Below, in pieces: positions 1 through 32,590 of a stretch of DNA of 33,098 nucleotides (position 1 is its first letter; each line of letters starts with the position of its first letter). Source of the DNA: Nemertoderma westbladi (taxonomy: Eukaryota; Animalia; Xenacoelomorpha); assembly GCA_032718475.1 (NCBI GenBank), contig JAUCBJ010002637.1:1-33098 (forward strand), written 5' to 3'. The notes under the pieces were generated by a model. It was not told the origin of the DNA. It saw nothing but the letters and a program-made list of their open reading frames with translations, and searched no databases. The translations under genes and the position numbers were made by a program.

Positions 1-3000
1 GCAGTGAGTAATATAGTAAACCCATCCTAAGGGATGCAGTGATATATATAATAAACCCGCCCTAAGGGATGCAGTGAATAATATAATAAAACCATCCCAA
101 GGGATGCAGTGAGTAATATAATAAAACCATCCCAAGGGATGCAGTGAGTAATATAATAAACCCACCCTAAGGGATGCAGTGAATAATATAATAAACCCGT
201 CCTAAGGGATGCAGTGATTAATATAATAAAACCATCCCAAGGGATGCAGTGAGTAATATAATAAACCCGTCCTAAGGGATCCAGTGATTAATATAATAAA
301 ACCATCCCAAGGGATGCAGTGAGTAATATAATAAAACCATCCTAAGGGATTCAGTGAGTAATATAGTAAACCCGTCCTAAGGGATGCAGTGAGTAATATA
401 ATAAACCCGCCCTAAGGGATGCAGTGAGTAATATAGTAAACCCATCCAAAGGGATGCAGAGATATATATAATAAACCCGCCCTAAGGGATGCAGTGAATA
501 ATATAATAAACCCGTCCTAAGGGATGCAGTGAGTAATATAGTAAACCCGTCCTAAGGGATGCAGTGAGTAATATAGTAAACCCGTCCTAAGGGATGCAGT
601 GAATAATATAATAAACCCTTCCTAAGGGATGCAGTGAGTAATATAATAAAACCATCCCAAGGGATGCAGTGAGTAATATAGTAAACCCAACCTAAGGGAT
701 GCAGTGAGTAATATAGTAAACCCATCCTAAGGGATGCAGTGAGTAATATAGTAAACCCAACCTAAGGGATGCAGTGAGTAATATAGTAAACACACCCTAA
801 GGGATGCAGTGAATAATATAATAAACCCGTCCTAAGGGATGCAGTGAGTAATATAGTAAACCCGTCCTAAGGGATGCAGTTAATAATATAATAAACCCTT
901 CCTAAGGGATGCAGTGAGTAATATAATAAAACCATCCCAAGGGATGCAGTGAGTAATATAATAAACCCACCCTAAGGGATGCAGTGAATAATATAATAAA
1001 CCCGTCCTAAGGGATGCAGTGAGTAATATAATAAAACCATCCCAAGGGATGCAGTGAGTAATATAATAAAGCCGTCCTAAGGGATGCAGTGAGTAATATA
1101 GTAAACCAATCCTAAAGGATGCAGTGAGTAATATAATAAACCCATCCTAAGGGATGCAGTGAGTAATATAGTAAACCAATCCTAAAGGATGCAGTGAGTA
1201 ATATAATAAAACCATCCCAAGGGATGCAGTGAGTATTATAATAAACCCGTCCTAAGGGATGCAGTGAGTAATATAGTAAACCAATCCTAAAGGATGCAGT
1301 GAGTAATATAATAAACCCATCCTAAGGGATGCAGTGAGTAATATAATAAACCCATCCTAAGGGATGCAGTGATATATATAATAAACCCGCCCTAAGGGAT
1401 GCAGTGAATAATATAATAAACCCGTCCTAAGGGATGCAGTGAGTAATATAATAAAACCAGTCCTAAGGGATGCAGTGAATAATATAATAAACCCGTCCTA
1501 AGGGATGCAGTGAGTAATATAATAAAACCAGTCCTAAGGGATGCAGTGAGTAATATAATAAAACCAGTCCTAAGGGATGCAGTGAGTAATATAATAAAAC
1601 CATCCCAAGGGATGCAGTGAGTAATATAATAAACCCATCCTAAGGGATGCAGTGATATATATAATAAACCCGCCCTAAGGGATGCAGTGAATAATATAAT
1701 AAACCCGTCCTAAGGGATGCAGTGAGTAATATAATAAAACCAGTCCTAAGGGATGCAGTGAGTAATATAATAAAACCAGTCCTAAGGGATGCAGTGAGTA
1801 ATATAATAAAACCATCCCAAGGGATGCAGTGAGTAATATAATAAACCCGTCCTAAGGGATGCAGTGAGTAATATAATAAACCCATCCTAAGGGATGCAGT
1901 GATATATATAATAAACCCGCCCTAAGGGATGCAGTGAATAATATAATAAACCCGTCCTAAGGGATGCAGTGAGTAATATAATAAAACCAGTCCTAAGGGA
2001 TGCAGTGAGTAATATAATAAAACCATCCCAAGGGATGCAGTGAGTAATATGATAAACCCATCCTAAGGGATGCAGTGATATATATAATAAACCCGCCCTA
2101 AGGGATGCAGTGAGTAAGATAGTAAACCCGTCCTAAGGGATGCAGTGAATAATATAATAAACCCTTCCTAAGGGATGCAGTGAGTAATATAATAAAACCA
2201 TCCCAAGGGATGCAGTGAGTAATATAATAAACCCACCCTAAGGGATGCAGTGAATAATATAATAAACCCGTCCTAAAGGATGCAGTGAGTAATATAGTAA
2301 ACCCATCCTAAGGGATGCAGTGATATATATAATAAACCCGCCCTAAGGGATGCAGTGAATAATATAATAAAACCATCCCAAGGGATGCAGTGAGTAATAT
2401 AATAAAACCATCCCAAGGGATGCAGTGAGTAATATAATAAACCCACCCTAAGGGATGCAGTGAATAATATAATAAACCCGTCCTAAGGGATGCAGTGATT
2501 AATATAATAAAACCATCCCAAGGGATGCAGTGAGTAATATAATAAACCCGTCCTAAGGGATCCAGTGATTAATATAATAAAACCATCCCAAGGGATGCAG
2601 TGAGTAATATAATAAAACCATCCTAAGGGATTCAGTGAGTAATATAGTAAACCCGTCCTAAGGGATGCAGTGAGTAATATAATAAACCCGCCCTAAGGGA
2701 TGCAGTGAGTAATATAGTAAACCCATCCAAAGGGATGCAGAGATATATATAATAAACCCGCCCTAAGGGATGCAGTGAATAATATAATAAACCCGTCCTA
2801 AGGGATGCAGTGAGTAATATAGTAAACCCGTCCTAAGGGATGCAGTGAGTAATATAGTAAACCCGTCCTAAGGGATGCAGTGAATAATATAATAAACCCT
2901 TCCTAAGGGATGCAGTGAGTAATATAATAAAACCATCCCAAGGGATGCAGTGAGTAATATAGTAAACCCAACCTAAGGGATGCAGTGAGTAATATAGTAA

Positions 3001-6000
3001 ACCCATCCTAAGGGATGCAGTGAGTAATATAGTAAACCCAACCTAAGGGATGCAGTGAGTAATATAGTAAACACACCCTAAGGGATGCAGTGAATAATAT
3101 AATAAACCCGTCCTAAGGGATGCAGTGAGTAATATAGTAAACCCGTCCTAAGGGATGCAGTTAATAATATAATAAACCCTTCCTAAGGGATGCAGTGAGT
3201 AATATAATAAAACCATCCCAAGGGATGCAGTGAGTAATATAATAAACCCACCCTAAGGGATGCAGTGAATAATATAATAAACCCGTCCTAAGGGATGCAG
3301 TGAGTAATATAATAAAACCATCCCAAGGGATGCAGTGAGTAATATAATAAAGCCGTCCTAAGGGATGCAGTGAGTAATATAGTAAACCAATCCTAAAGGA
3401 TGCAGTGAGTAATATAATAAACCCATCCTAAGGGATGCAGTGAGTAATATAGTAAACCAATCCTAAAGGATGCAGTGAGTAATATAATAAAACCATCCCA
3501 AGGGATGCAGTGAGTATTATAATAAACCCGTCCTAAGGGATGCAGTGAGTAATATAGTAAACCAATCCTAAAGGATGCAGTGAGTAATATAATAAACCCA
3601 TCCTAAGGGATGCAGTGAGTAATATAATAAACCCATCCTAAGGGATGCAGTGATATATATAATAAACCCGCCCTAAGGGATGCAGTGAATAATATAATAA
3701 ACCCGTCCTAAGGGATGCAGTGAGTAATATAATAAAACCAGTCCTAAGGGATGCAGTGAATAATATAATAAACCCGTCCTAAGGGATGCAGTGAGTAATA
3801 TAATAAAACCAGTCCTAAGGGATGCAGTGAGTAATATAATAAAACCAGTCCTAAGGGATGCAGTGAGTAATATAATAAAACCATCCCAAGGGATGCAGTG
3901 AGTAATATAATAAACCCATCCTAAGGGATGCAGTGATATATATAATAAACCCGCCCTAAGGGATGCAGTGAATAATATAATAAACCCGTCCTAAGGGATG
4001 CAGTGAGTAATATAATAAAACCAGTCCTAAGGGATGCAGTGAGTAATATAATAAAACCAGTCCTAAGGGATGCAGTGAGTAATATAATAAAACCATCCCA
4101 AGGGATGCAGTGAGTAATATAATAAACCCGTCCTAAGGGATGCAGTGAGTAATATAATAAACCCATCCTAAGGGATGCAGTGATATATATAATAAACCCG
4201 CCCTAAGGGATGCAGTGAATAATATAATAAACCCGTCCTAAGGGATGCAGTGAGTAATATAATAAAACCAGTCCTAAGGGATGCAGTGAGTAATATAATA
4301 AAACCATCCCAAGGGATGCAGTGAGTAATATGATAAACCCATCCTAAGGGATGCAGTGATATATATAATAAACCCGCCCTAAGGGATGCAGTGAGTAAGA
4401 TAGTAAACCCGTCCTAAGGGATGCAGTGAATAATATAATAAACCCTTCCTAAGGGATGCAGTGAGTAATATAATAAAACCATCCCAAGGGATGCAGTGAG
4501 TAATATAATAAACCCACCCTAAGGGATGCAGTGAATAATATAATAAACCCGTCCTAAAGGATGCAGTGAGTAATATAGTAAACCCATCCTAAGGGATGCA
4601 GTGATATATATAATAAACCCGCCCTAAGGGATGCAGTGAATAATATAATAAAACCATCCCAAGGGATGCAGTGAGTAATATAATAAAACCATCCCAAGGG
4701 ATGCAGTGAGTAATATAATAAACCCACCCTAAGGGATGCAGTGAATAATATAATAAACCCGTCCTAAGGGATGCAGTGATTAATATAATAAAACCATCCC
4801 AAGGGATGCAGTGAGTAATATAATAAACCCGTCCTAAGGGATCCAGTGATTAATATAATAAAACCATCCCAAGGGATGCAGTGAGTAATATAATAAAACC
4901 ATCCTAAGGGATTCAGTGAGTAATATAGTAAACCCGTCCTAAGGGATGCAGTGAGTAATATAATAAACCCGCCCTAAGGGATGCAGTGAGTAATATAGTA
5001 AACCCATCCAAAGGGATGCAGAGATATATATAATAAACCCGCCCTAAGGGATGCAGTGAATAATATAATAAACCCGTCCTAAGGGATGCAGTGAGTAATA
5101 TAGTAAACCCGTCCTAAGGGATGCAGTGAGTAATATAGTAAACCCGTCCTAAGGGATGCAGTGAATAATATAATAAACCCTTCCTAAGGGATGCAGTGAG
5201 TAATATAATAAAACCATCCCAAGGGATGCAGTGAGTAATATAGTAAACCCAACCTAAGGGATGCAGTGAGTAATATAGTAAACCCATCCTAAGGGATGCA
5301 GTGAGTAATATAGTAAACCCAACCTAAGGGATGCAGTGAGTAATATAGTAAACACACCCTAAGGGATGCAGTGAATAATATAATAAACCCGTCCTAAGGG
5401 ATGCAGTGAGTAATATAGTAAACCCGTCCTAAGGGATGCAGTTAATAATATAATAAACCCTTCCTAAGGGATGCAGTGAGTAATATAATAAAACCATCCC
5501 AAGGGATGCAGTGAGTAATATAATAAACCCACCCTAAGGGATGCAGTGAATAATATAATAAACCCGTCCTAAGGGATGCAGTGAGTAATATAATAAAACC
5601 ATCCCAAGGGATGCAGTGAGTAATATAATAAAGCCGTCCTAAGGGATGCAGTGAGTAATATAGTAAACCAATCCTAAAGGATGCAGTGAGTAATATAATA
5701 AACCCATCCTAAGGGATGCAGTGAGTAATATAGTAAACCAATCCTAAAGGATGCAGTGAGTAATATAATAAAACCATCCCAAGGGATGCAGTGAGTATTA
5801 TAATAAACCCGTCCTAAGGGATGCAGTGAGTAATATAGTAAACCAATCCTAAAGGATGCAGTGAGTAATATAATAAACCCATCCTAAGGGATGCAGTGAG
5901 TAATATAGTAAACCCGTCCTAAGGGAAGCATGCAGTGAGTAATATAGTAAACCCAACCTAAGGGATGCAGTGAGTAATATAGTAAACCCGTCTTAAGGGA

Positions 6001-6836
6001 AGCATCCAGTGAGTAATATAATAAAACCATCCCAAGGGATGCAGTGAATAATATAATAAACCCGTCCTAAGGGATGCAGTGAGTAATATAGTAAACCCGT
6101 CCTAAGGGATGCAGTGAATAATATAATAAACCCTTCCTAAGGGATGCAGTGAGTAATATAATAAAACCATCCCAAGGGATTCAGTGAGATATATAATAAA
6201 CCCGTCCTAAGGGATTCAGTTAGTAATATAATAAAACCATCCTAAGGGATTCAGTTAGTAATATAATAAAACCATCCTAAGGGATTCAGTGAGTAATATA
6301 GTAAACCCGTCCTAAGGGATGCAGTGAGTAATATAATAAAACCATCCCAAGGGATGCAGTGAGTAATATAATAAACCCGTCCAAAGGGATTCAGTTAGTA
6401 ATATAATAAAACCATCCTAAGGGATTCAGTTAGTAATATAATAAAACCATCCTAAGGGATTCAGTGAGTAATATAGTAAACCCGTCCTAAGGGATGCAGT
6501 GAGTAATATAGTAAACCCGTCCTAAGGGATGCAGTGAGTAATATAGTAAATCCATCCTAAGGGATGCAGTGAGTAATATAATAAAACCATCCTAAGGGAT
6601 TCAGTGAGTAATATAGTAAACCCGTCCTAAGGGATGCAGTGAGTAATATAATAAAACCATCCTAAGGGATTCAGTGAGTAATATAGTAAATCCATCCTAA
6701 GGGATTCAGTGAGTAATATAGTAAATCCGCCCTAAGGGATGCAGTGAATAATATAATAAACCCTTCCTAAGGGATGCAGTGAGTAATATAGTAAACCCAT
6801 CCTAAGGGATGCAGTGAGTAATATAGTAAACCCGTC
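1..6836. repeat. 35-bp tandem satellite (about 195 monomers in window, continues past window start) with a 2281-bp higher-order repeat
   Basis: Consensus GCAGTGAGTAATATAATAAACCCGTCCTAAGGGAT. Rare variants recur at exactly +2281 (e.g. 'aaagccgt', G at 1071/3352/5633; identical ORFs at 1640 and 3921). Confidence 0.98.
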
Positions 6837-9640
6837 GTACCAGCTTGCCCTGTAGATTGCCCCCAACCGAACCCTCTATACATCCAACCTACCAGTTTGC
6901 CCTGTAGATTGCCCCCAACCGAACCCTCTATACATCCAACCTACCAGTTTGCCCTGTAGATTGCGCCCCACGGCACCCTCTCTACCTCTAACCTACCAGT
7001 TTGCCCTGTATATTGCCTTCCACTGAATTCTCTCTACCTCTAACCTACCAGTTTGCCCTGTATATTGCCCTCCACTGAACCATCTCTACCTCTAACCTAC
7101 CAATTTGCCCTGTATATTGCCCTCAACCTCCACTGAACCCTCTCGACCTCTAACCTACCAGTTTACCCCGTATATTGCCATCCACTAAACCCTCTCTACC
7201 TCCAACCTACCAGTTTGCCCTGTATAGTGCCCTCCACTGCACCCTCTCTACCTCTAACCTACCAGTTTGCCCTGTAGATTGCCCCCCACCGAACCCTCTC
7301 TACCTCTAACCTACCAGTTTGCCCTTTATATTGCCCTCCGCTGAACCCTCTCTACCTCTAACCTACCAGTTTGTCCTGTATATTGCCCTCCACTGCACCC
7401 TCTCTACCTCTAACCTACCAGTTTGCCCTGTAGATTGCCCCCCACCGAACCTTCTCTACCTCTAACCTACCAGTTTGCCCTGTAGATTGCCCCCCACCGA
7501 ACCATCTCTACCTCTAACCTACCAGTTTGCCCTGTAGATTGCCCTCCACTGATCCCTATCTACCTCTAACCTACCTGTTTGCCCTGTAGATTGCCCCCCA
7601 CCGAACCTTCTCTACCTCTAACCTACCAGTTTGCCCTGTAGATTGCCCCCCACCGAACCCTCTCTGCCCCTAACCTACCAGTTTGCCCTGTATATTGCCT
7701 TCCGCTGAACCCTCTCTACCTCTAACCTACCAGTTTGTCCTGTATATTGCCCTCCATTGCACCCTCTCTACCTCTAACCTACCAGTTTGCCCTGTAGATT
7801 GCCCCCACCGAACCCTCTCTATCTCTAACCAACCAGTTTGCCCTGTAGATTGCCCCCCACCGAACCATCTCTACCTCTAACCTACCAATTTGCCCTGTAG
7901 ATTGCCCTCCACTGATCCCTCTCTACCTCTAACCTACCTGTTTGCCCTGTAGATTGCCCCCCACCGAACCTTCTCTACCTCTAACCTACCAGTTTGCCCT
8001 GTAGATTGCCCTCCACCGAACCCTCTCTGCCCCTAACCTACCAGTTTGCCCTGTATATTGCCTTCCACTGAACCCTCTCTACCTCTAACCTATCAGTTTG
8101 CTACCTCTAACCTACCAGTTTGTCCTGTATATTGCCTTCCACTGAACCCTCTCTACCTCTAACCTACCAGTTTGCCCTGTAGATTGCCCTCCACTGAACC
8201 CTATCTACCTCTAACCTACCAGTTTGCCCTGTAGATTGCCCTCCAATGAACCCTCTCTACCTCCAACCTACCAGTATGCCCTGTAGATTGCTCCCCACCG
8301 AACCCTCTCTACCTCTAACCTACCAGTTTGCCCTGTAGATTGCCCCCCACCGAACCCTTTCTACCTCTAACCTACCAGTTTGCCCTGTAGATTGCCCCCC
8401 ACCGAACCCTTTCTACCTCTAACCTACCAGTTTGCCCTGTAGATTGCCCCCCACCGAACCATCTCTACCTCTAACCTACCAGTTTGCCCTGTAGATTGCC
8501 CTCCACTGATCCCTCTCTACCTCTAACCTACCTGTTTGCCCTGTAGATTGCCCTCCAATGAACCCTCTCTACCTCCAACCTACCAGTTTGCCCTGTAGAT
8601 TGCCCCCCACCGAACCCTCTCTGCCTCTAACCTACCAGTTTGCCCTGTATATTGCCTTCCACTGAACCCTCTCTACCTCTAACCTATCAGTTTGCAACCT
8701 CTAACCTACCAGTTTGTCCTGTATATTGCCTTCCACTGAACACTCTCTACCTCTAACCTACCAGTTTGCCCTGTAGATTGCCCTCCACTGAACCCTATCT
8801 ACCTCTAACCTACCAGTTTGCCCTGTAGAGTGCCCTCCAATGAACCCTCTCTACCATCAACCTACCAGTTTGCCCTGTAGATTGCCCCCCACCGAACCTT
8901 CTCTACCTCTAACCTACCAGTTTGCCCTGTATATTGCCTTCCACTGAACCCTCTCTACCTCTAACCTATCAGTTTGCTACCTCTAACCTACCAGTTTGTC
9001 CTGTATATTGCCTTCCACTGAACCCTCTCTACCTCTAACCTACCAGTTTGCCCTGTATATTGCCTTCCACTGAACCCTCTCTACTTCTAACCTGCCAGTT
9101 TGCCCTGTATATTGCCCTCCACTGAACCCTCTTTACATTTAACCTACCAGTTTGCCCTGTAGATTGCCCCCCACCGAACCATCTCTGCCTCTAACCTACC
9201 AGTTTGCCCTGTAGATTGCCCTCCACTGAACCCTCTTTACATTTAACCTACCAGTTTTTCCTGTATATTGCCTTCCACTGAACCCTCTCTACTTCTAACC
9301 TGCCAGTTTGCCCTGTATATTGCCCTCCACTGAACCCTCTTTACATTTAACCTACCAGTTTGCCCTGTAGATTGCCCCCCACCGAACCCTCTCTGCCTCT
9401 AACCTACCAGTTTGCCCTCCACTGAACCCTCTTTACATTTAACCTACCAGTTTGCCCTGTAGATTGCCCTCCACAGCACCCTCTCTACCTCTAACCTACC
9501 AGTTTGTCCTGTATATTGCCTTCCACTGAACCCTCTCTACTTCTAACCTGCCAGTTTGCCCTGTATATTGCCCTCCACTGAACCCTCTTTACATTTAACC
9601 TACCAGTTTGCCCTGTAGATTGCCCTCCACAGCACCCTCT
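6837..9640. repeat. 52-bp tandem minisatellite (about 54 copies) containing the exon end and splice donor of exon 9919-9604
   Basis: Unit ~ACCAGTTTGCCCTGTAGATTGCCCCCCACCGAACCCTCTCTACCTCTAACCT; 'accag' at 6839, 6891, 6943 gives period 52. Minus strand reads ...GGGCAATCTACAGGGCAAACTG|GTAGGT. Confidence 0.97.
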
Positions 9641-9919
9641 CCAGCTCTGCAGTATGCCTGGCAACCGATGTGCATAGTTATCCCGGCAAACTCCTCCGGT
9701 ACGCCCCCTCGCGGTTCACAACGGACACCGACAACTGCTTTGTAGCATCGCTTTATCAACTCCTTTATCTCAGTACGGGTGCAACAGCCAATCAATAGCC
9801 GCTCTACCTCAGCTGGGTAGCTATGGTAACCGGCGTATACAGCAAACTCTTCCTCGTCCAATCGAGAAAGAGTTTCCTTGTATAACAACATCCGTTCATC
9901 CGGGTGGATTTGGTCAGAA
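9604..9919 (-). CDS. Internal coding exon (316 nt) of an unidentified multi-exon gene: SDQIHPDERMLLYKETLSRLDEEEF...MHIGCQAYCRAGEGAVEGNLQGKL
   Basis: Acceptor ttttgtttcag|T at 9920/9919, donor CTG|GTAGGT at 9604/9603. Open, protein-like frame. The 1-nt overhang completes the phase-2 end of exon 11919-11720 (AG+T = Ser). Confidence 0.8.
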
Positions 9920-10483
9920 CTGAAACAAAATATGGTATATTTTACTGCGGTCATTGCGGTTACTGCTGTCACGTAGTGAGCATAGTCTGCCTTAATACTT
10001 AGTCTATGGTTTCAGATTTGTCTATTTTTCTTATGTATGTCGATTGTGCTCTATCATATCCCCGTGTACTCGGACTGGAATCCGTTCTCTGTTGGGTAGC
10101 TTCTCTTAATTCGATTTTCGTTAAATCAAACGATTACGATTCGTTGATTCGTAATGCATTGTAAGTCTAATATTCAGATAAATTCATTTTTTGTTAAATA
10201 TATAAACTGGGCCGACCGTCGGACTAAATACAATGTGTCTTTCTACAGTATTCAGAATAAACCGACCTATTAGAGAAATAACAAAAGAAATAAGAATATA
10301 TTTTATCTTTACTACCTTGGTAGATAATGATATTCGAACATTTTTAAACATCCAAGATTTGGATGTGATAGAGATTTGGCAACAAAATGGTTGTAGAAAC
10401 CATTTCGGACCACCACAAGGCGCCTTACAGATTTCAACTTTGCTGACGATATTGGTGTTCTGTCGTAGTCGGTGAGCCAGAAA

Positions 10484-10712
10484 TTTTCTACAAATCTTAC
10501 TTAATGATATTGCATGAAATTTGAAATAGAGATAGTTTCACCTCCCTGCTCCTCCGTGGGTGAGCCAGAATTGTTATTTTTGCTTTCATGCTTTTGCTAC
10601 AAGCGTTTATAAAAGGTGTCTCCGTCGATATTGCACCAGTTACACCGCTTATATTCTTCAATCTCATATAAGTTGTTGATTGTTGATGGAAAAAGCTGGC
10701 CGGCCGCGGCCA
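10484..10712 (+). mobile_element. Fragment of a dispersed repeat, homologous to the left arm of the foldback element at about 12040-12260
   Basis: Shares 'gattgcatgaaatttgaaatagagatagttt...cacctccc...ctcctccgtggg.gagccagaatt...gctacaagcgttt...gtgtctccg.cgatat...aagctggccggcc' with 12040-12260. Confidence 0.8.
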
Positions 10713-10714
10713 TG

Positions 10715-11440
10715 TTCTCTGAATGTCTGTAGGTAGGTCGTCCCAAAGTTTGGTGGCCTCTGGTAGGATATGGAGGACCGGGTGAGATTGGACCGGTATA
10801 ATGGTGGTTGGTAGCTTGGAATGCACTGCTGGCTGTTCGAGTGGGATAAGTATGGATAGATTTGGTGAGTGTGAAGTTGTTGTTTAGTTGGGATGTGAGT
10901 TTTGATAGACCCAGTAACTGTAGTCATTGGAATTTATAGAGTGAGGACAGATTCATGGTCATGAGATTTCAAGAGGATTATTCGGATGATTTTTTCTGTA
11001 ATTATATTAGAGGAAGAAGGCAGACAGTGGTGTGAGAATCGCCGCAGTTCCCCACGCCGTGACTTAAGTGGGAGTCAACCATAGAGAATGATATAAGTTA
11101 ATGCACGGTATGTTTAGTGGCAAGAAGTTCTTAGCTTTGTTTATAATTCCAATATTTTTTGCAATTTTTAGTCGAATATAATCGATGTGTTTGTTCCATT
11201 TTAAATTATCGCTGATAAATATACCAGGAATTTTATATGTTTAACTTGTTCAATGTTGTGTGGACCAATTGAGATTTTCGGTAGTAGGCTTATTCTTAAG
11301 TTGCGATTTTTCTGAAAAATCATAAATTTTTTTGTGCTTTGGTGATGTTTAGGGAAAGTTTATTAGTTTGGAGCCATATTATTAGAATATTTTCAAATTT
11401 CGTGTTTGCTAATGTAATCAGATCGTCTGAATATTTATTG
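10715..11440 (-). mobile_element. Degenerate non-LTR retrotransposon (CR1/L2-like LINE), 3' part of ORF2
   Basis: Frameshifted minus-strand translation gives WLQTNKLSLNITK...IEQVKHIKFL...ISDNLKWNKHIDYIRLKIAKNIGIINKAK...LQKKIIRII...KLWDDLP, typical of the RT thumb/C-terminus of CR1/L2-group elements. Confidence 0.8.
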
Positions 11441-11719
11441 GAAATAAATATTGTAATGAATCGATAGCGAAAAGGAAAAAAAATTTAAATTTGTTGATGA
11501 GGCCGTAATATCATTATCACTGCCATCGCTGTCAGGATCAACCTGTTGACAACCTTCTGCTCTGGAAACCACCATGAAGCAGACATGTTGACCACGCCAA
11601 ACTTGAAAAGTTTGTGGCTGACTGGGTGATTTCATGCGACTTTATTTCTGGGACTGCTGTTCACGGCCTTCTATAATACCATGCCTTGTACTCTACGTAT
11701 GCTACAATCCTACACTAAC

Positions 11720-11919
11720 CTGCTCATTCGAACGTTGCTTAGCAACTGGGTGGCTCCGTGCCAGGAAGCCAGTACCTCCTCTACCGAAACAAATCCAATG
11801 AACCCCTGTCCCGTTGCCATGGTAGAGGCGACCGCATTGAGAGGAGATAGAGACTCTGCTACCGCACTGTGAAACTGAATCTCCAACTCAAGAATCAGAG
11901 ACAAACTCTTTGCGAATAT
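11720..11919 (-). CDS. Internal coding exon (200 nt) of the same unidentified gene: IFAKSLSLILELEIQFHSAVAESLSPL...QLLSNVRMS
   Basis: Acceptor tttctcattag|ATA at 11920/11919 (phase 0, matching the upstream exon). Donor AG|GTTAGT at 11720/11719 (phase 2, matching the downstream exon). Frame is open (ORF 11710..11904). Confidence 0.8.
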
Positions 11920-12039
11920 CTAATGAGAAATCAATAATTTCACTCCAATTTAATTAAATATGATAATATAATAGATATAACCATGTCCTGGAATATAGTG
12001 TAACGGAGAAATGGATCCCACCCCCCCCCCCCCCCCCCC

Positions 12040-12720
12040 ATTTTTTCTACAAATCGTAATGAGATTGCATGAAATTTGAAATAGAGATAGTTTGTCACCT
12101 CCCTCCTCCTCCGTGGGAGAGCCAGAATTTTTAATTTGCTTTCAATCTTTAGCTACAAGCGTTTGAAAAATGTGTCTCCGGCGATATTTCACCAGTTACA
12201 CTCCAGTTATTCTTCAACCTTATAGTGAGTTGTTGCTACTGATGGAAAGCTGGCCGGCCATGTAAGGAATCCAAATATGTAACATAATCTAAATTTCGTT
12301 GAAAACTAGCTGAGATTTGAGCGTCAAAAGTTTCATGGTTTTACATCTGCATGAGGCTATTTTATTCTATTAAATAAAAATACCTTATTCTAGAACATTT
12401 TGTTTATTTATGAATAGCTACGTAATAGTATAATTAAAGAGGCATTGCATTGTTGCCCAGCTACATATGGAATAAACAAAATGTTCTAGAACATTGTGTA
12501 TTTATTAAATAGAATAAATGGCCTGCGGGGGAAGCAAATACATGCAACATTCGAATGCCAATATCTCAGCTATTTACCAACCAAATTCAAATGTTTTTAC
12601 AGATTTGGAATCCTTGCACGGTCAGCTTTCTACTAGTGCCAATAAATCACTATAAGGTTGAAGAATGATTGCACTGTGAGCTGTGGAATATCGCCGGAGA
12701 CACATTTTTCAAACACTTGT
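12040..12720. mobile_element. Long imperfect palindrome (foldback/MITE-like element), right arm cut off by the 60-bp array
   Basis: acaagcgtttgaaaaatgtgtctccggcgatat (from 12155) pairs with atatcgccggagacacatttttcaaacacttgt (to 12720). Inner pair ttctagaacattttgtttatt / aataaacaaaatgttctagaa. Centre about 12437; second partial copy at 10484-10712. Confidence 0.8.
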
Positions 12721-15700
12721 CCACAGGGCACAGACACTAAGTTACGTTATTTACACATTGACTTGACGGCAGAAAGATCCACAGGGCACAGACACTAAGT
12801 TACGTTACTTACACATTGACTTGACGGCAGAAAGATCCACAGGGCACATAGACTAAGTTACGTTACTTACATTGACTTGGAGTACGGCAGAAAGATCCAC
12901 AGGGCACAGACGCTAAGTTACGTTACTTACATTGACTTGGAGTACGGCAGAAAGATCCACAGGGCACAGACACTAAAGTTACGTTACATACATTGACTTG
13001 GAGTACGGCAGAAAGCTCCACAGGGCACAGACACTAAGTTACGTTACTTACATTGACTTGGAGTACGGCAGAAAGATCCACAGGGCACAGACACTAAGTT
13101 ACGTTACTTACATTGACTTGGAGTACGGCAGAAAGATCCGCAGGGCACATAGACTAAGTTACGTTACTTACATTGACTTGGAGTACGGCAGAAAGATCCA
13201 CAGGGCACAGACACTAAGTTATGTTACATACATTGACTTGGAGTAAGGCAGAAAGATCCACAGGGCACAGACACTAAGTTACGTTACTTACATTGACTTG
13301 GAGTACGGCAGAAAGATCCACAGGGCACAGACACTAAGTTACGTTACTTACATTGACTTGGAGTACGGCAGAAAGATCCACAGGGCACAGACACTAAGTT
13401 ACGTTACTTACATTGACTTGGAGTACGGCAGAAAGATCCACAGGGCACAGACACTAAAGTTACGTTACATACATTGACTTGGAGTACGGCAGAAAGATCC
13501 ACAGGGCACAGACACTAAGTTACGTTACTTACATTGACTTGGAGTACGGCAGAAAGATCCACAGGGCACAGACACTAAGTTACGTTACTTACATTGACTT
13601 GGAGTATGGCAGAAAGATCCACAGGGCACAGACACTAAAGTTACGTTACATACATTGACTTGGAGTACGGCAGAAAGATCCACAGGGCACAGACACTAAG
13701 TTACGTTACTTACATTGACTTGGAGTACGGCAGAAAGATCCACAGGGCACAGACACTAAAGTTACGTTACATACATTGACCTGGAGTACGGCAGAAAGAT
13801 CCACAGGGCACAGACACTAAGTTACGTTACTTACATTGACTTGGAGTACGGCAGAAAGATCCACAGGGCACAGACACTAAGTTACGTTACTTACATTGTC
13901 TTGGAGTACGGCAGAAAGATCCACAGGGCACAGACACTAAGTTACGTTACTTACATTGACTTGGAGTACGGCAGAAAGATCCACAGGGCACAGAGACTAA
14001 GTTACGTTACTTACAATGACTTGGGGTACGCCAGAAAGATCCACAGGGCACAGAGACTAAGTTACGTTACTTACATTGACTTGGAGTACGGCAGAAACAT
14101 CCACAGGGCACAGACACTAAAGTTACGTTACATACATTGACTTGGAGTACGGCAGAAAGATCCACAGGGCACAGACACTAAGTTACGTTACTTACATTGT
14201 CTTGGAGTACGGCAGAAAGATCCACAGGGCACAGACACTAAGTTACGTTACTTACAATGACTTGGGGTACGCCAGAAAGATCCACAGGGCACAGAGACTA
14301 AGTTACGTTACTTACATTGACTTGGAGTACGGCAGAAACATCCACAGGGCACAGACACTAAAGTTACGTTACATACATTGACTTGGAGTACGGCAGAAAG
14401 ATCCACAGGGCACAGACACTAAGTTACGTTACTTACATTGTCTTGGAGTACGGCAGAAAGATCCACAGGGCACAGACACTAAGTTACGTTACTTACAATG
14501 ACTTGGGGTACGCCAGAAAGATCCACAGGGCACAGACACTAAAGTTACGTTACATACATTGACTTGACGGCAGAAAGATCCACAAGGCACAGACACTAAG
14601 TTACGTTACTTACATTGACTTGGAGTACGGCAGAAAGATCCACAGGGCACAGACACTAAAGTTACGTTACATACATTGACTTGACGGCAGAAAGATCCAC
14701 AAGGCACAGACACTAAGTTACGTTACTTACATTGACTTGGAGTACGGCAGAAAGATCCACAGGGCACAGAGATTAAGTTACGTTACTTACATTGACTTGG
14801 AGTACGGCAGAAACATCCACAGGGCACAGACACTAAAGTTACGTTACATACATTGACTTGGAGTACGGCAGAAAGATCCACAGGGCACAGACACTAAGTT
14901 ACGTTACTTACACATTGACTTGGAGTACGGCAGAAACATCCACAGGGCACAGACACTAAAGTTACGTTACATACATTGACTTGGAGTACGGCAGAAAGAT
15001 CCACAGGGCACAGACACTAAAGTTACGTTACATACATTGACTTGACGGCAGAAAGATCCACAAGGCACAGACACTAAGTTACGTTACTTACATTGACTTG
15101 GAGTACGGCAGAAAGATACACAGGGCACAGAGATTAAGTTACGTTACTTACATTGACTTGGAGTACGGCAGAAATATCCACAGGGCACAGACACTAAGTT
15201 ACGTTACTTACATTGACTTGGAGTACGGCAGAAAGATCCACAGGGCACAGACACTAAGTTACGTTACTTACATTGACTTGGAGTACGGCAGAAAGATCCA
15301 CAGGGCACAGACACTAAGTTACGTTACTTACATTGACTTGGAGTACGGCAGAAAGATCCACAGGGCACAGACACTAAGTTACGTTACTTACATTGACTTG
15401 GAGTACGGCAGAAAGATACACAGGGCACAGACACTAAGTTACCTTACTTACATTGACTTGGAGTACGGCAGAAAGATCCACAGGGCACAGACACTAAGTT
15501 ACGTTACTTACACATTGACTTGGAGTACGGCAGAAAGATCCACAGGGCACAGACACTAAGTTACGTTACTTACATTGACTTGGAGTACGGCAGAAAGATC
15601 CACAGGGCACAGACACTAAGTTACGTTACTTACACATTGACTTGGAGTACGGCAGAAAGATCCACAGGGCACAGACACTAAGTTACGTTACTTACACATT

Positions 15701-16995
15701 GACTTGGAGTACGGCAGAAAGATCCACAGGGCACAGACACTAAGTTACGTTACTTACATTGACTTGGAGTACGGCAGAAAGATCCACAGGGCACAGACAC
15801 TAAGTTACGTTACTTACATTGACTTGGAGTACGGCAGAAAGATCCACAGGGCACAGACACTAAGTTACGTTACTTACATTGACTTGGAGTACGGCAGAAA
15901 AATCCACAGGGCACATACACTAAGTTACGTTACTTACATTGACTTGGAGTACGGCAGAAAGATCCACAGGGCACAGACACTAAGTTACGTTACTTACATT
16001 GACTTGGAGTACGGCAGAAAGATCCACAGGGCACAGACACTAAGTTACGTTACTTACATTGACTTGGAGTACGGCAGAAAGATCCACAGGGCACAGACAC
16101 TAAGTTACGTTACTTACATTGACTTGGAGTACGGCAGAAAGATCCACAGGGCACAGACACTAAGTTACGTTACTTACATTGACTTGGAGTACGGCAGAAA
16201 GATCCACAGGGCACAGACACTAAGTTACGTTACTTACATTGACTTGGAGTACGGCAGAAAGATCCACAGGGCACAGACACTAAGTTACGTTACTTACATT
16301 GACTTGGAGTACGGCAGAAAGATCCACAGGGCACAGACACTAAGTTACGTTACTTACATTGACTTGGAGTACGGCAGAAAGATCCACAGGGCACAGACAC
16401 TAAGTTACGTTACTTACATTGACTTGGAGTACGGCAGAAAGATCCACAGGGCACAGACACTAAGTTACGTTACTTACATTGACTTGGAGTACGGCAGAAA
16501 GATCCACAGGGCACAGACACTAAGTTACGTTACTTACATTGACTTGGAGTACGGCAGAAAGATCCACAGGGCACAGACACTAAGTTACGTTACTTACATT
16601 GACTTGGAGTACGGCAGAAAGATCCACAGGGCACAGACACTAAGTTACGTTACTTACATTGACTTGGAGTACGGCAGAAAGATCCACAGGGCACAGACAC
16701 TAAGTTACGTTACTTACATTGACTTGGAGTACGGCAGAAAGATCCACAGGGCACAGACACTAAGTTACGTTACTTACATTGACTTGGAGTACGGCAGAAA
16801 GATCCACAGGGCACAGACACTAAGTTACGTTACTTACATTGACTTGGAGTACGCCAGAAAGATCCACAGGGCACAGACACTAAGTTACGTTACTTACATT
16901 GACTTGGAGTACGGCAGAAAGATCCACAGGGCACAGAGACGTTGGTTACGTTGGTTACTTACATTAACTTGGGGTACGCCAGATGGATCCACAGA
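12721..16995. repeat. ~60-bp tandem minisatellite (about 70 copies) containing the exon end and GTAAGT donor of exon 17109-16963
   Basis: Unit GATCCACAGGGCACAGACACTAAGTTACGTTACTTACATTGACTTGGAGTACGGCAGAAA. Minus strand CTGTGGATCTTTCTGCCGTACTCCAAGTCAAT|GTAAGT versus exon CTGTGGATCCATCTGGCGTACCCCAAGTTAAT|GTAAGT. Confidence 0.97.
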
Positions 16996-17109
16996 TGACG
17001 TCATCCGATGAATTTCCTGCTGAATCTGATCGCAAGCTTCTTTTGTAGCTAAATTAATATCCTGAAGGATACACTCTAGTTTCACTGCTATATCCCAACT
17101 ATTAGTATC
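16963..17109 (-). CDS. Internal coding exon (147 nt) of the same unidentified gene: DTNSWDIAVKLECILQDINLATKEACDQIQQEIHRMTSSVDPSGVPQVN
   Basis: Acceptor ttctatgtttccag|GAT at 17110/17109, donor AAT|GTAAGT at 16963/16962. 49 codons, phase 0 at both ends, helical-looking peptide. Confidence 0.8.
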
Positions 17110-17296
17110 CTGGAAACATAGAAACCACAATGATTAAAAACAAATAATGTAGACCCAAATCACCAAGTCCGTGAATGGACACTACTGGTTGGAAGATACA
17201 CCAAAGGTCAGGAGATATACAGTCGTTCAACCAATTACTTATTCTCTAACGTCACTTATACCCCGTGTTAGGGTTGGGTGAGGGTCCTGGTTACAA

Positions 17297-19764
17297 GTTT
17301 ACTGGAGACATCGTACAACAGAACTGTAAGCCACCAGTAAACTGGAGACTTCGTACAACAGAACTGTAAGCCACCAGTAAACTGGGGACTTCGTATAACA
17401 GAACTGTAAGCCACCAGTAAACTGGAGACTTCGTACAACAGAACTGTAAGCCACCAGTAAACTCCGGACTTCGTACAACAGAACTGTAAGCCACCAGTAA
17501 ACTCCGCACTTCGTACAACAGAAGTGTAAGCCACCAGTAAACTGGAGACTTCGTACAACAGAACTGTAACCCACCAGTAAACTTGGGACTTCGTACAACA
17601 TAACTGTAAGCCACCAGTAAACTCCGCACTTCGTACAACAGAACTGTAAGCCACCAGTAAACTGGAGACTTCGTACAACAGAACTGTAAGCCACCAGTAA
17701 ACTGGGGACTTCGTACAACAGAACTGTAAGCCACCAGTAAACTCCGGACTTCGTACAACAGAACTGTAAGCCACCAGTAAACTCCGCACTTCGTACAACA
17801 GAACTGTAAGCCACCAGTAAACTGGAGACTTCGTACAACAGAACTGTAAGCCACCAGTAAACTCCGGACTTCGTACAACAGAACTGTAAGCCACCAGTAA
17901 ACTCCGCACTTCGTAGAACAGAAGTGTAACCCACCAGTAAACTGGGGACTTTGTACAACAGAACTGTAAGCCACCAGTAAACTTGGGACTTCGTACAACA
18001 TAACTGTAAGCCACCAGTAAACTCCGCACTTCGTACAACAGAACTGTAAGCCACCAGTAAACTCCGCACTTCGTACAACAGAACTGTAAGCCACCAGTAA
18101 ACTGGGGACTTTGTACAACAGAACTGTAAGCCACCAGTAAACTTGGGACTTCGTACAACATAACTGTAAGCCACCAATAAACTCCGCACTTCGTACAACA
18201 GAACTGTAAGCCACCAGTAAACTCCGAACTTCGTACAACAGAACTGTAAGCCACCAGTAAACTGGAGACTTCGTACAACAGAACTGTAACCCACCAGTAA
18301 ACTCAGGACTTCGTACAACATAACTGTAAGCCACCAGTAAACTGGGGACTTTGTACAACAGAACTGTAAGCCACCAGTAAACTTGGGACTTCGTACAACA
18401 TAACTGTAAGCCACCAGTAAACTCCGCACTTCGTACAACAGAAGTGTAACCCACCAGTAAACTCTGGACTTCGTACAACAGAACTGTAAGCCACCAGTAA
18501 ACTGGGGACTTTGTACAACAGAACTGTAAGCCACCAGTAAACTTGGGACTTCGTACAACATAACTGTAAGCCACCAGTAAACTCCGCACTTCGTACAACA
18601 GAAGTGTAAGCCACCAGTAAACTGGAGACTTCGTACAACAGAACTGTAACCCACCAGTAAACTCCGGACTTCGTACAACAGAACTGTAAGCCACCAGTAA
18701 ACTGGAGACATCGTACAACAGAACTGCAACCCACCAGTAAACTGGAGACTTCGTACAACATAACTGTAAGCCACCAGTAAACTGGAGACTTCGTACAACA
18801 GAACTGTAACCCACCAGTAAACTCCGGACTTCGTACAACAGAACTGTAAGCCACCAGTAAACTGGAGACTTCGTACAACAGAACTGTAACCCACCAGTAA
18901 ACTTGGGACTTCGTACAACATAACTGTAAGCCACCAGTAAACTCCGAACTTCGTACAACATAACTGTAAGCCACCAGTAAACTGGAGACTTCGTACAACA
19001 TAACTGTAAGCCACCAGTAAACTGGGGACTTTGTACAACAGAACTGAAAGCCACCAGTAAACTGGGGACTTCGTACAACATAACTGTAAGCCACCAGTAA
19101 ACTCCGGACTTCGTACAACAGAACTGTAAGCCACCAGTAAATTCCGAACCTCTTACAACAGAAATGTAAGCCTCCAGTAAACTGGGGACTTCGTACAACA
19201 TAACTGTAAGCCACCTGTAAACTCCAGACTTCGTACAACAGAACTGTAAGCCACCTGTAAACTCCAGACTTCGTACAACATAACTGTAAGCCACCAGTAA
19301 ACTGGGGACTTCGTACAACAGAACTGTAAGCCACCAGTAAACTGGGGACTTTGTACAACAGAACTGTAAGCCACCAGTAAACTGGAGACTTCGTACAACA
19401 GAACTGTAAGCCACCTGTAAACTCCAGACTTCGTACAGCAGAACTGTAAGCCACCAGTAAACTCCGAACTTCGCACAACAGAACTGCAAGCCACCAGTAA
19501 ACTGGGGACTTCGTACAACAGAACTGTGAGCCACCAGTAAACTCCGGACTTCGTACAACATAACTGTAAGCCACCAGTAAACTGGGGACTTCGTACAACA
19601 GAACTGTAAGCCACCAGTAAACTGGGGACTTTGTACAACAGAACTGTAAGCCACCAGTACACGTGGGACCTCGTACAACAGAACTGTAAGCCACCAGTAA
19701 ACTGGAGACTTCGTACAACAGAACTGTAAGCCACCAGTAAACTCCAGACTTCGTACAGCAGAAC
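17297..19764. repeat. 40-bp tandem minisatellite (about 62 copies, no indels)
   Basis: Unit ACT[GGAG/GGGG/CCGG/CCGC/TGGG...]ACTTCGTACAACAGAACTGTAAGCCACCAGTAA; the register is constant along the whole array. Confidence 0.98.
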
Positions 19765-19993
19765 ACGTTATGGCTTCTGACCCACCCAAAACCACACAAC
19801 CCTCGTATAATGAGACGGGTGGGGATGTTCAATTATAAATTTAGGGAAAGGAGCAGGTTACAGGGGTACCATATTCTAACCAAAACAATAAACCGAAGTC
19901 AATAGGACATGGTAGTTTTATTTTTTGGAAGTAACAGCTGTCATTTCGATTTTCCCCTGGTGGTGTGGGATGAATTTTCATTACGCCGAAAGT

Positions 19994-20279
19994 CCCCGCC
20001 GTATCCGAGTAAACCGCACAGTTCTGACTCGCATCCCCGCCGTTTCCGAGTAAACCTCACAGTTCTGACTCGCATCCCCGCCGTATCCGAGTAAACCTCA
20101 CAGTTCTGACTCGCATCCCCGCCGTATCCGAGTAAACCTCACAGTTCTGACTCGCATCCCCGCCGTTTCCGAGTAAACCTCACAGTTCTGACTCGCATCC
20201 CCGCCGTATCCGAGTAAACCTCACAGTTCTGACTCGCATCCCCGCCGTTTCCGAGTAAACCTCACAGTTCTGACTCGCA
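19994..20279. repeat. 41-bp tandem repeat (about 7 copies)
   Basis: Unit CCCCGCCGT(A/T)TCCGAGTAAACCTCACAGTTCTGACTCGCAT. Confidence 0.95.
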
Positions 20280-20620
20280 GTCTCTTGATGATTTCTTTGT
20301 GAGACGAAACTTACAGATTAGCTGAACAATATGATTGCATGCTCAGTATGGGTCACAAGTTGATTTTATATATTTTATATTGTTCGGAACATTTACCCTA
20401 CCGATAAAAATATTTCGTTTTCAATAAAACGTTTTCTTTCTATAAAAATCATATTTTATGAAAACTGAAAGTAAACTAAAATACGAAGACAATTAGCATG
20501 CAGGCCTATGTGATGTGAAAGTATAAAGAATAATTAGGATTTTATAAAACGCGAATTTTATTGTGGTCCTTTCATTATTATTTACATATTTAATTACAGT
20601 ATTTTCATTATATAAAAACC

Positions 20621-20674
20621 AACTACCGTTATATACATAATAATTATAACTACCGTTATATACATAATAATTAC
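20621..20674. repeat. 27-bp direct duplication
   Basis: aactaccgttatatacataataatta(t/c) x2. Confidence 0.85.
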
Positions 20675-21360
20675 AATAATACATTATTAAATTAATGTAT
20701 AAATTAAATGCAACTGCCAAGAATGATCACATATTAAACCGAAGTACTGTAGGTAGGTCCGCAGTAGTCCGGCCTATGTAAGTATATCCAATATAACCAT
20801 TAAAATATCACGGAATTAATTTACGTGCAAAAATAAAAAAGTCCTCTCAATAGAGACGGATGTTCAACGTCAATTTCAAACGAGTTTAAATTGAAGAGAA
20901 TAGATAAAAGTAAATTAAATTGTTAATTCAAACTCAGTAATGTCTTGAATTAATTGTTATGAGTACACAGTAACATATCATAGCAGATATTATGTAATAA
21001 TTAGAGTAATAATTCAGACCAGTAATCATTCACACAAGACCACTCACTACGAATAGACTACCGGTATCCATAAAAAATTTGTCAACTAAAACAAGCAAAA
21101 CAAAGTTGAAGGCATTTTGCACGCGCAGCTCAAACGTACGTATACATTCGTGGCAGTGAGCGAGAATTATAAAAGACAGTTGATTAATTAATAAAAAACG
21201 GAACATGAATTAATCATGTTATTGACTAACAGTTATTAATTAATAATCAGCATCTTCAATGTTACATAATTTGAAAATTACAACCACTTGAAAACACAAC
21301 TTGTATTAACTACATGAATACCAAGTCTACCCAATATTAAGATAAGTACTGCGACCTTCA

Positions 21361-21602
21361 AACCAATCAACGACTCTCAATCAGGGCTGTCCCAACCAAT
21401 CAACGACCCTCAATCAGGGCTGTCCCAACCAATCAACGACCCTCAATCAGGGCTGTCCCAACCAATCAACGATCCTCAATCAGGGCTGTCCGAGTGGCCA
21501 ATCAACGACCCTCAATCAGGGCTGTCCGAGTGGCAAATCAACGACCCTCAATCAGGGCTGTCCCAACCAATCAACGACCCTCAATCAGGGCTGTCCGAGT
21601 GG
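21361..21602. repeat. 33/36-bp tandem repeat (7 copies) spanning the UBXN10 stop codon and 3' UTR start
   Basis: Unit (AA)CCAATCAACGACCCTCAATCAGGGCTGTCC(C/GAGTGG); minus strand GAC AGC CCT GAT TGA is the last four codons plus stop. Confidence 0.93.
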
Positions 21603-23086
21603 CTATGAAGGTAAATCACAGACTTATCTGTGATCCGATAATCGTTCAACGTCTTATTCAAATCTGAAAGAATTCTCGAGGGAATATCTGCGGTCACAAA
21701 ATCGTGATGCTGGAAACGCATATCGGCTGTTTGTTCCGCGAATTCTAGAACGTTTCTAAGCGGGTCGTCGATGTGGAACAATCGTTGACAGCGCTGTCCA
21801 CTTGGCAACCGGATCGCCAACAGGATGTCGGAGACGGATTTGGGTTGCGATACGTCTATCCAGTCGATATCCGGTAAGTCGGAAGAATCCGAGTCCGTCG
21901 GAGTCGGGGCGTTTGGCGAGAGTACCTGGTAGTCACCGTAGTCTGTGATAGCGAAACCTTCTAGGTCCTGTAGGGAGTCCCGTCTGGGTTGCGAGTCTGG
22001 GGAGGGGAGTGGCAGCTCAGTTTGGTACGGTGGGTCAGTCTGGTACGATGGGTCTGGTTGGTACATTGGGTCTCTTTGATACATTTGGTCCGTTTGGTAC
22101 ATTGGATCCGTTTGGTACATTGGGTCTGTTTGGTACATTGGGTCTGTTTGATACATTCGGTCCGTTTGATACACTGGGTCTGTTTGGTACAGGTTTCCAG
22201 TGTGGTGTGGCGCTTCCGGTAGCGACCCAGAACGTCCGCCGATCCCCGGTAACGGCGCGTACCGACCCAACGACGACGAACCCTCCGGACGGAGTTGCGA
22301 AAGGATATCCAGGGTATCGTCGGTGGAGAGACGCCTCCTAGCGGAGGTTAATGGTCGCGGAACCACGCCGCTAGGGGGCGCGTAGGATGTGTCTACACGA
22401 GGTGCCTGCTGCGACATGCAATCCCGGGTGGAGGAACTGGTCGGATTGACGAGACGGGGAGCCTCGAAACGATCGAACCACGGAACCTCGTCGACGACGC
22501 GTTGCGTAGCAACCGTCGGACTTCGGGAAGCCATCTCGCGGTCGTTCTGCGCGAACTCCTCCTGTATCGGGGGTCTAGAACGTCGCCCTCGGGAGGTGCG
22601 AGGCCTTTCGGTTCCCTCGTAAGCGATCACCGTGGGAGCCTCGCTGGCCGACGGATCGGGCTGCTGCGAGTAGAAGATCTCCGCACCCAGGTTGAGATTC
22701 AGTGACTCATCGGTAGGTTTCGTCTCCCTGGGTGACGGTTTAGGCTTCGGTTGTACCTGTTTAGCCTGGATGGAACCGGTGAAGGTCTGTCGATTCGCTT
22801 TGCTCGAAACCACCGCCGTTTGAGGTTTCGCTCTGGGGGACTGGAAGTTTCTCGACGCGCCAGTTTGGTATGTTCTGCTAGTCGAGGAAACCGACGCGTT
22901 GGATAGACCCCGTCTGTACCCGTAGGTCGGGAGGGTCTGCTGGCCGCCTATTGGCCGTTGCTGCGGTGTCCTGGAACTGGGTTGCTGTCCGGCCATCCCA
23001 CCAGGTTTACCATTCGGATTCTCTATTTGTTGGCGTTTCTCGCTTCCTCTACTGGTACGTGGACGATTGTCCATCGTAGTGGCCAT
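21581..23086 (-). CDS. UBXN10: UBX domain-containing protein 10-like (p97/VCP adaptor linked to ciliogenesis), single coding exon, 501 aa
   Basis: C-terminal UBX domain (LLAIRLPSGQRCQRLFHIDDPL...IPSRILSDLNKTLNDYRITDKSVIYL). Motifs RPRTSRGRRSRP and SSSLGRYAPLPGI resemble human UBXN10 RPKSAKGRTRP and SSSLNKYPVLPSI (recalled from memory). Long disordered N-terminus. Confidence 0.85.
   Translation of the reverse strand: MATTMDNRPRTSRGSEKRQQIENPNGKPGGMAGQQPSSRTPQQRPIGGQQTLPTYGYRRGLSNASVSSTSRTYQTGASRNFQSPRAKPQTAVVSSKANRQTFTGSIQAKQVQPKPKPSPRETKPTDESLNLNLGAEIFYSQQPDPSASEAPTVIAYEGTERPRTSRGRRSRPPIQEEFAQNDREMASRSPTVATQRVVDEVPWFDRFEAPRLVNPTSSSTRDCMSQQAPRVDTSYAPPSGVVPRPLTSARRRLSTDDTLDILSQLRPEGSSSLGRYAPLPGIGGRSGSLPEAPHHTGNLYQTDPVYQTDRMYQTDPMYQTDPMYQTDPMYQTDQMYQRDPMYQPDPSYQTDPPYQTELPLPSPDSQPRRDSLQDLEGFAITDYGDYQVLSPNAPTPTDSDSSDLPDIDWIDVSQPKSVSDILLAIRLPSGQRCQRLFHIDDPLRNVLEFAEQTADMRFQHHDFVTADIPSRILSDLNKTLNDYRITDKSVIYLHSHSDSPD
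22010..22189 (-). repeat. Coding 18-bp repeat, 10 x YQTDPM-like hexapeptide
   Basis: YQTDPV YQTDRM YQTDPM x3 YQTDQM YQRDPM YQPDPS YQTDPP YQTELP in the ORF. Confidence 0.95.
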
Positions 23087-31729: not shown

Positions 31730-32590
31730 TACTACTACTACTACTACTAGGATCGGCATGTTGCATTGCAGCTGCATTTTTAAGAATGCTATGCCGGCTT
31801 GTCGACAAAATTGCGCCGCCACAACTCCCTATCACCCATGACATTGGCTAGATCATCCACATCTTCAAGGCCAGTGTCCTTTAAGATGCGTCTCAAGAAA
31901 GTCATGGGCTGTCCACCATGCTTATTCACTCCATGAGGCTGCCAAAGATTATGCACTGGCTGGTCCTCACGGCGAAAGCAATGTCCTGCAAAGCGTAGGC
32001 GATTTTGTTCTAGTGTCAAGCTTGGGGGAATCAATGAGCCCGACGTACCATTCTTGTGAATGTGCCATCCAGAGACTTGGCGTCCTCAGCAGTTAGAGCC
32101 CAGCATGGACTCCTATAGAGAAGTGCTGGAACTATTGCTGCTCTAAATAATCGGACCTTAAGTTTCCAATTAATTCTCGGTGACTTCCAAATCCTGGAAA
32201 GCCTATTCAAGCAGTCAATCCATGATTCATGGGATCCATGATCCCAGGTAACAGAAGTCATCCACATGCTCAAGCATACCATCCTTTGAGCTTATGCTCA
32301 TCCTATCAGACTTGCTGACTTTAAAATTTAACTGTCAAAATTGTGGACTTTCTAGAGTTATTAAAAAGACCAACACTAGAAGCAGCATGTTCTAATGAGC
32401 TGAGGAGCCGTTGGCCTCCCTCTAGCTGTCTAGTGATTCTGAGAGTACTCCTAAGTCATCAGCAAAGTCTAGATCAGTTAGGTACTTGGCAGGATTTCCT
32501 CGACTTCTAAGGACATGCATAGAACATAGTCAAACACAATTATGAACAAGAATGGTGCAAGTGTGTCTCCCTGGAGGACGCCCCAACGAT
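31730..32590 (-). mobile_element. 5'-truncated, frameshifted RTE-clade LINE with (TAG)n tail
   Basis: Minus strand: GVLQGDTLAPFLFIIVFDYVL, YLTDLDFADD (RT catalytic motif), LKVRLFRAAIVPALLY...LDGTFTRMVRRA, RLRFAGHCFRR...MGDRELWR. A trinucleotide tail (tac)n on plus lies at 31730-31749. Confidence 0.9.

Follow-up and report, generated by a model that had tools for sequence, protein, structure and literature searches.

Minisatellites whose repeat unit runs across a 5′ splice site have been described in several human genes: intervening sequence 7 (IVS7) of F7 (37 bp, 5–9 copies), IVS13 of CBS (15–20), the interferon-inducible gene 6-16 with its reiterated donors (25 pseudo-sites), LMNB2 (100 bp, 10–15), and PDGFA (81 bp, 16–18) (Borensztajn et al., 2006; PMC1557585). 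Comparable lancelet arrays, called "mirages," have been reported in Adh3, the globin genes BflGb6 and BflGb9, troponin C, and PGBD5; the edge copies of mirages lie outside homogenization and such arrays are suggested to be common in the lineage (PMC3087553; PMC3902484). Their origin is called unclear (PMC3087553), and the same paper cites the Rogers model, in which introns are gained via tandem duplication of AG/GT proto-splice sites. Here, we describe a contig of Nemertoderma westbladi (JAUCBJ010002637.1, assembly GCA_032718475.1; 33,098 nt, the window in what follows) in which two introns of one minus-strand gene are filled with tandem copies of that gene's own donors. An earlier reading made from the sequence alone had held the pattern to be unfamiliar; it is already known from the three papers above, and the locus is a dense further case of donor-spanning minisatellites, the density within a single gene being its main unusual trait.

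The host gene was followed over three exons on the minus strand: the first of those seen (17109–16963; 147 nt, phase 0-0, donor AAT/GTAAGT, with the slash marking the splice site), exon 2 (11919–11720; 200 nt, donor CAG/GTTAGT, present as a single copy), and exon 3 (9919–9604; 316 nt, donor CTG/GTAGGT). When joined, the exons read through 221 codons without a stop and have AG and GT ends, the remaining two frames contain 16 and 11 stops, and all three donors fall in the top 0.5% by a donor score based on approximate donor frequencies.

The 60-bp array that follows exon 1 (12720–16994, minus strand; ∼71 copies as called with Tandem Repeats Finder) has a unit in which the final 32 nt of exon 1 are followed by ∼28 nt of intron. 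The exon end is identical to the array consensus at 27 of 32 positions, in agreement with the sequence-only reading (last ∼32 nt plus GTAAGT). The donor GT is kept in all 68 copies in donor register, and GTAAGT in 52. This array makes up 84% of its intron, contains an 877-nt perfect run near exon 1, and is separated from its acceptor by 800 nt of other DNA. The 52-bp array past exon 3 (6838–9648, minus strand; ∼53 copies by the same program) repeats the last ∼38–45 nt of that exon (41 of 45 identical) together with the start of the intron, so that the GTAGGT proposed earlier is confirmed and the exonic part is longer than the ∼30 nt then claimed. GT is kept in 48 of 51 copies in donor register, and the first decoy past exon 3 (9547–9552) has GC in its place. 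A substitution in the second repeat of CBS, to which this first decoy may be likened, is said in the title of a paper to block alternate splicing. A 24-mer across each splice site is found 61 times for the exon 1 donor and 52 times for the exon 3 donor; the exon 2 donor and the three acceptors each have a single copy. The earlier view of two introns filled with copies that arose at the locus from the gene's own donors is upheld, and the accompanying view that acceptors were amplified as well is not, since none of the three supported acceptors has a copy.

Contigs of four public runs (X1–X4) were aligned to positions 9450–12900. In runs X1–X3, exons and introns are covered alike. In X4, depth is 101 on exons 2 and 3 and 0 on the unique parts of the intron; the type of this run is only guessed in its listing, and we take it as RNA from the pattern (exons only, joined). 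A single X4 contig (record 25; 3181 nt) carries 11919–11720 at its positions 737–936 and 9919–9603 at positions 937–1253, with 0 differences and a letter-exact 11720→9919 junction. It departs from the genome at 9603 (i.e., after one shared G) and does not enter the array; X4 depth is 0 on 9450–9565, and the binned depth is explained exactly by record 25 alone. The genuine first donor of exon 3 is the donor used in the assembled transcript, as had been predicted for the exon-proximal site. It should be noted that this result comes from one run and from contigs, in which rare isoforms are invisible, and that it concerns the 52-mer. Ahead of exon 2, record 25 contains another 736 nt; exon 1 would account for 147 of these (leaving 589 nt further upstream). 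The proposal that the three islands splice in phase into one open frame thus holds for frame, signals, and the 11720→9919 junction, while the 16963→11919 junction and the exon 1 donor are predicted from the open frame and canonical signals.

In the 60-mer, splicing at any of the 57 GTRAG decoys would bring in a premature stop, and in the 52-mer intron an in-frame TAA lies two codons past the true donor, so a transcript spliced at a decoy would probably be degraded. GT has not been selectively lost from the copies, which suggests that the decoys are tolerated. Of the 32 sites compared between exon 1 and the 60-mer copies, 5 differ, and three of these differences are at second codon positions, as expected of drift free of protein constraint. 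Both arrays have the exon end and donor within the repeat unit, as in the described exon-intron-boundary minisatellites, and for the 52-mer the X4 contig adds a used splice site and dominance of the most upstream donor.

The likeness to the human F7 type is close, with a first unit across the exon-intron boundary, a donor reiterated down the intron, and use of the most upstream donor (PMC1557585); compared with the human cases, there are more copies here (51–68), two arrays in one gene, and an array that takes up 84% of an intron. With lancelet mirages the locus shares tandem copies of exon-intron boundaries, here putatively specific to the locus, and normal splicing (lancelet units are 10–160 bp) (PMC3087553; PMC3902484), and with lancelet PGBD5 two arrays in one gene (60 and 108 bp there) (PMC3902484). 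It differs in that the lancelet globin and PGBD5 cases have 2–7 copies, and in that both 5′ and 3′ boundaries are repeated there whereas only donors are supported here; somatic instability has been shown at lancelet Adh3. The Rogers model likewise involves tandem duplication across splice signals, but the arrays here lie within introns that have their own distant acceptors, no new intron is shown, and we rejected intron creation by the arrays. The arrangement is not described in the available parts of PMC10078293, PMC12783039, and PMC9940879, and no genome-wide test of donor enrichment was found in the open literature at the level of titles and listings.

The reading that we favor, and consider probable, is that the 52- and 60-mers are locus-born minisatellites that have copied their own exon end and donor 50–70 times, that they are likely neutral, and that the first donor is taken (shown for exon 3 and presumed for exon 1). 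Unequal repair or ordinary slippage would first have doubled a segment of 52 or 60 bp spanning the donor, and the usual turnover of minisatellites would then have expanded and homogenized it, in keeping with the 877-nt perfect run near exon 1 and with an exact 2281-bp block in the 35-mer array. The 35-, 40-, and 41-mers would be locus-born repeats of the same sort, and may lie on donors, perhaps those of an antisense gene. Copies lying wholly within coding DNA would be purged unless in frame, and copies past a donor or a stop codon would leave the product unchanged; in a genome prone to repeats, they would for this reason accumulate at such harmless places. Harmless positions are also taken by further repeats in the window, namely an in-frame 18-mer in a UBX-domain gene, a 33-mer past a stop codon, and a 27-mer pair in AT-rich DNA. 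Expansion nucleated at splice junctions, the process put forward in the sequence-only reading, is one reading, and survival of harmless duplications fits the same data without a new mechanism. For first-donor choice, there is experimental precedent in F7 minigenes (PMC1557585).

Six main arrays, all at the places where they had been claimed (Tandem Repeats Finder), make up 78% of positions 1–21603. Their units are unrelated in 14 of 15 pairs, the remaining pair being the 40-mer (plus) and the 41-mer (minus), which have CAGAACTGT and a GGGGA run in common (p = 0.04 uncorrected, not significant after 15 tests), and no 14-mer of any array recurs elsewhere in the window. One common dispersed satellite family, which the earlier reading had also argued against, is rejected on these grounds, for the window. 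As a rough guide, read depth at the edges of the 52- and 60-mers in the DNA runs of two samples is ∼2–100× that of unique DNA, and that of a neighboring dispersed element is >1000×. Two of the six arrays are shown boundaries of the spliced gene and one (the 33-mer) belongs to another gene, rather than all six being boundaries of one gene as had been proposed. When scored in full as donors against random DNA of the same length, the 60-mer (p = 0.01) and the 52-mer (p = 0.03) stand out, and the 35-mer (p = 0.19), 40-mer (p = 0.29), 41-mer (p = 0.33), and 33-mer (p = 0.74) are not above chance.

Several observations weigh against neutral survival with first-donor choice as a sufficient account. 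Once every array is reduced to a single unit (4912 nt), the placement of two of five arrays on the three supported donors has p = 0.007, or p = 0.027 if acceptors are counted, and survival alone does not obviously explain such an excess because purely intronic repeats would be equally harmless. A bare GTRAG motif is present in three of the four other units (p ∼ 0.005; p = 0.09–0.12 for a looser motif). The donor window of the 52-mer is among its least variable parts (rank 2 of 52, a figure biased by how the units were cut). In CBS and 6-16, splicing does reach the next copy or the next two (PMC1557585), minor decoy use may have gone unseen here because contigs lose rare isoforms, and the RNA bears on the exon 3 donor only. 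The p values of 0.007–0.03 describe a local excess and no genome-wide rule, however, because the window was chosen for showing the pattern. The units are richer in GC (0.38–0.56) than unique intron DNA (0.29–0.39), and for this reason alone exon ends may seed repeats more readily.

The local excess is also what would be expected if the duplications were seeded by mutation linked to the 5′ splice site (e.g., through RNA-DNA hybrids or paused polymerase), so that most arrays in the lineage start on donors and the 35- and 40-mers are the donors of an interleaved plus-strand gene, a possibility that we regard as unlikely but as the first to be weighed. The 35-bp array (1–6833; no strand assigned, ∼195 copies, extending beyond the window) can be read as donor-like GCA/GTGAGT on the plus strand or as acceptor-like on the minus strand; GTGAGT is present in 133 of 194 copies and is counted 137 times on the plus strand versus 0 on the minus strand. 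The 40-bp array (17301–19764; no strand assigned, ∼62 copies) has CT/GTAAG on plus, which is CTTACAG on minus, and a GTRAG count of 51 on plus versus 1 on minus. The "acceptor" and "branch point" look of these units, for which they had been taken as minus-strand acceptors, arises because plus-strand donor motifs are being read backwards (CT/GTAAG gives CTTACAG and GTGAGTA gives TACTCAC), and no supported exon adjoins them as such. The 41-bp array (19993–20279; no strand assigned, 7 copies) carries ACT/GTGAGG on the minus strand and, with no supported exon beside it, is at most a candidate donor of the spliced gene, as which it had been read earlier.

Across all units, a donor-like GT hexamer is found on one strand in five of six (p = 0.02–0.03, for a loose motif), an excess that mildly favors targeting. 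On the left side of the 40-mer, the plus strand has CTAAC, AG, and then ACT/GTAAGC at 17272–17325; these 54 nt contain a stop-free frame at the 99th percentile of non-coding DNA, which suggests a candidate exon of a gene on the opposite strand. At 6833–6838, the 35-mer array meets the 52-mer array head-on with no unique DNA between them, as expected of two opposite donor arrays, the 52-mer array ending three bases past a donor copy. Set against this, the motifs of the 35-, 40-, 41-, and 33-mers taken singly are at chance level, as noted above; the 54-nt stretch is coding-like on either strand and scores as well on minus (5.0 versus 4.6, in a weak coding model); the unit ends lie at varying distance from the donor (32 + 28 nt versus ∼40 + 12 nt), a mild objection; and the plus-strand gene is itself a prediction within one pre-selected window. 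The still bolder view that repeats are preferentially born at 5′ splice sites lineage-wide, that introns are largely amplified donors, and that five of the six arrays here belong, as donors, to a pair of interleaved antisense genes whose opposite arrays collide at 6833–6838, strikes us as rather improbable.

That all arrays are boundaries of one minus-strand gene, with the 35- and 40-mers as amplified acceptors, is a poor prospect. The 35-mer does read on minus as a T-rich tract plus CCCTTAG at 154 places, a minus exon of 29 or 21 nt past the final CTTACAG could be spliced in phase to exon 1, and acceptor-side mirages are known from lancelet BflGb6 (PMC3087553). However, an exon of this kind would have weak minus donors at its disposal (GTAAAC, −1.6 bits, a score equaled by 22% of background GTs), in contrast to the top 0.5% occupied by the supported donors; the tract of the 40-mer is G-rich and lacks a branch motif; and, as noted, no supported acceptor is duplicated and the 33-mer is another gene's.

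It is very unlikely that the array lengths, that of the 35-mer above all, are inflated by assembly. The 35-mer array contains an exact 2281-bp (65-unit) higher-order repeat extending over 3626 nt without a mismatch (within 1–5907), which may be a very recent block duplication or an assembly effect. But the 52- and 60-mers are at raised depth in the short-read contigs of two samples (for these two arrays, contig depths differ between runs and are no measure of copy number), unique contig sequence ends at 9601, where the repeat starts, and the units are diverse (35 distinct among 191, and 39 among 50). We give least credence to the idea that the decoys are functional, acting as a length-dependent U1 sink or a decay route that tunes expression: most copies retain GT, a premature stop lies behind each decoy, and for some human loci (CBS and ABCA7, going by titles and listings) array length is indicated to alter splicing or expression, but no decoy product is present in the X4 contigs, intact donors are accounted for by recent homogenization alone, in the 35-, 40-, and 60-mers the variability of donor positions is close to that of the remaining positions, and stops are expected by chance in two-thirds of frames.

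The gene may be a relative of GARRE1/MiniBAR (KIAA0355). Residues 6–57 encoded by exon 3 match residues 58–109 of 8BUX (the Rab35-binding domain of GARRE1/MiniBAR), a weak match (E = 4e-4, 23.5 bits), and the length and helical upstream exons would be compatible with the architecture of that protein (bioRxiv 2023.07.24.550339). Pfam gave no match for the short exons taken singly, including the upstream BAR-like domain DUF4745. Homologue searches yielded 0 of 485 candidates with exon 3 and 0 of 75 with exon 2; the sole match among cluster representatives (P0121), a repetitive protein scored over four stretches, was discarded, and there was one metagenome match of 36 residues at 44%. A protein atlas, searched twice, contained no usable match for the gene's protein, a single-sequence fold model (pLDDT 46) was too poor to use and its fold search was without a match, and an Rfam search returned 0 matches. 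A coding model trained on the window, in which the true exons score −1.8 to 3.6, was too weak for placing upstream exons.

The 33/36-bp array (21361–21603, minus strand; 7 copies, no donor motif) repeats the last codons and the TGA of the UBX-domain gene into its 3′ flank. The earlier placement of an array at a stop codon (21361–21602) is thus borne out in that the stop is repeated, but the stop is that of a separate, intronless gene (21581–23086, minus strand; PF00789, E = 1.1e-8), which also contains the in-frame 18-bp coding repeat (22020–22191). On the plus strand, the 33/36-bp array can be read through in each of the three frames (21341–21667), and a strong donor (AAG/GTAAAT, 5.5 bits) follows directly past it at 21611; this stretch is possibly a further exon of an antisense gene. 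Further along, WDR90 (25525–31497, minus strand) is one uninterrupted frame of ∼1990 codons that includes two immunoglobulin I-set domains; among the matches listed, the Pfam lists of 120 relatives name no immunoglobulin family. Its best matches (55–58%) are spread over several animal phyla. An intronless 6-kb gene thus stands beside a gene with multi-kilobase introns.

The high-copy dispersed element next to the 60-mer array (12057–12720; no strand assigned) has inverted arms at 12155–12256 and 12619–12720 and nested inverted repeats, like a miniature inverted-repeat transposable element. Its depth is 1e4–2e5 versus ∼21–24 for unique DNA, its right arm ends where the 60-mer array ends, and a second, partial copy is found at 10502–10668. 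Broken frames at 31789–32291 and ∼10930–11330 look like the ends of retrotransposon reverse transcriptases.

In the 52-mer intron, the first donor wins over ∼50 intact copies of itself; the locus is also a warning for gene prediction and assembly. A genome rich in such arrays would allow mutational targeting to be separated from survival. If repeats are indeed born at donors throughout the lineage, the birth of minisatellites would be tied to splicing, and the genome would hold thousands of natural tests of first-donor choice.

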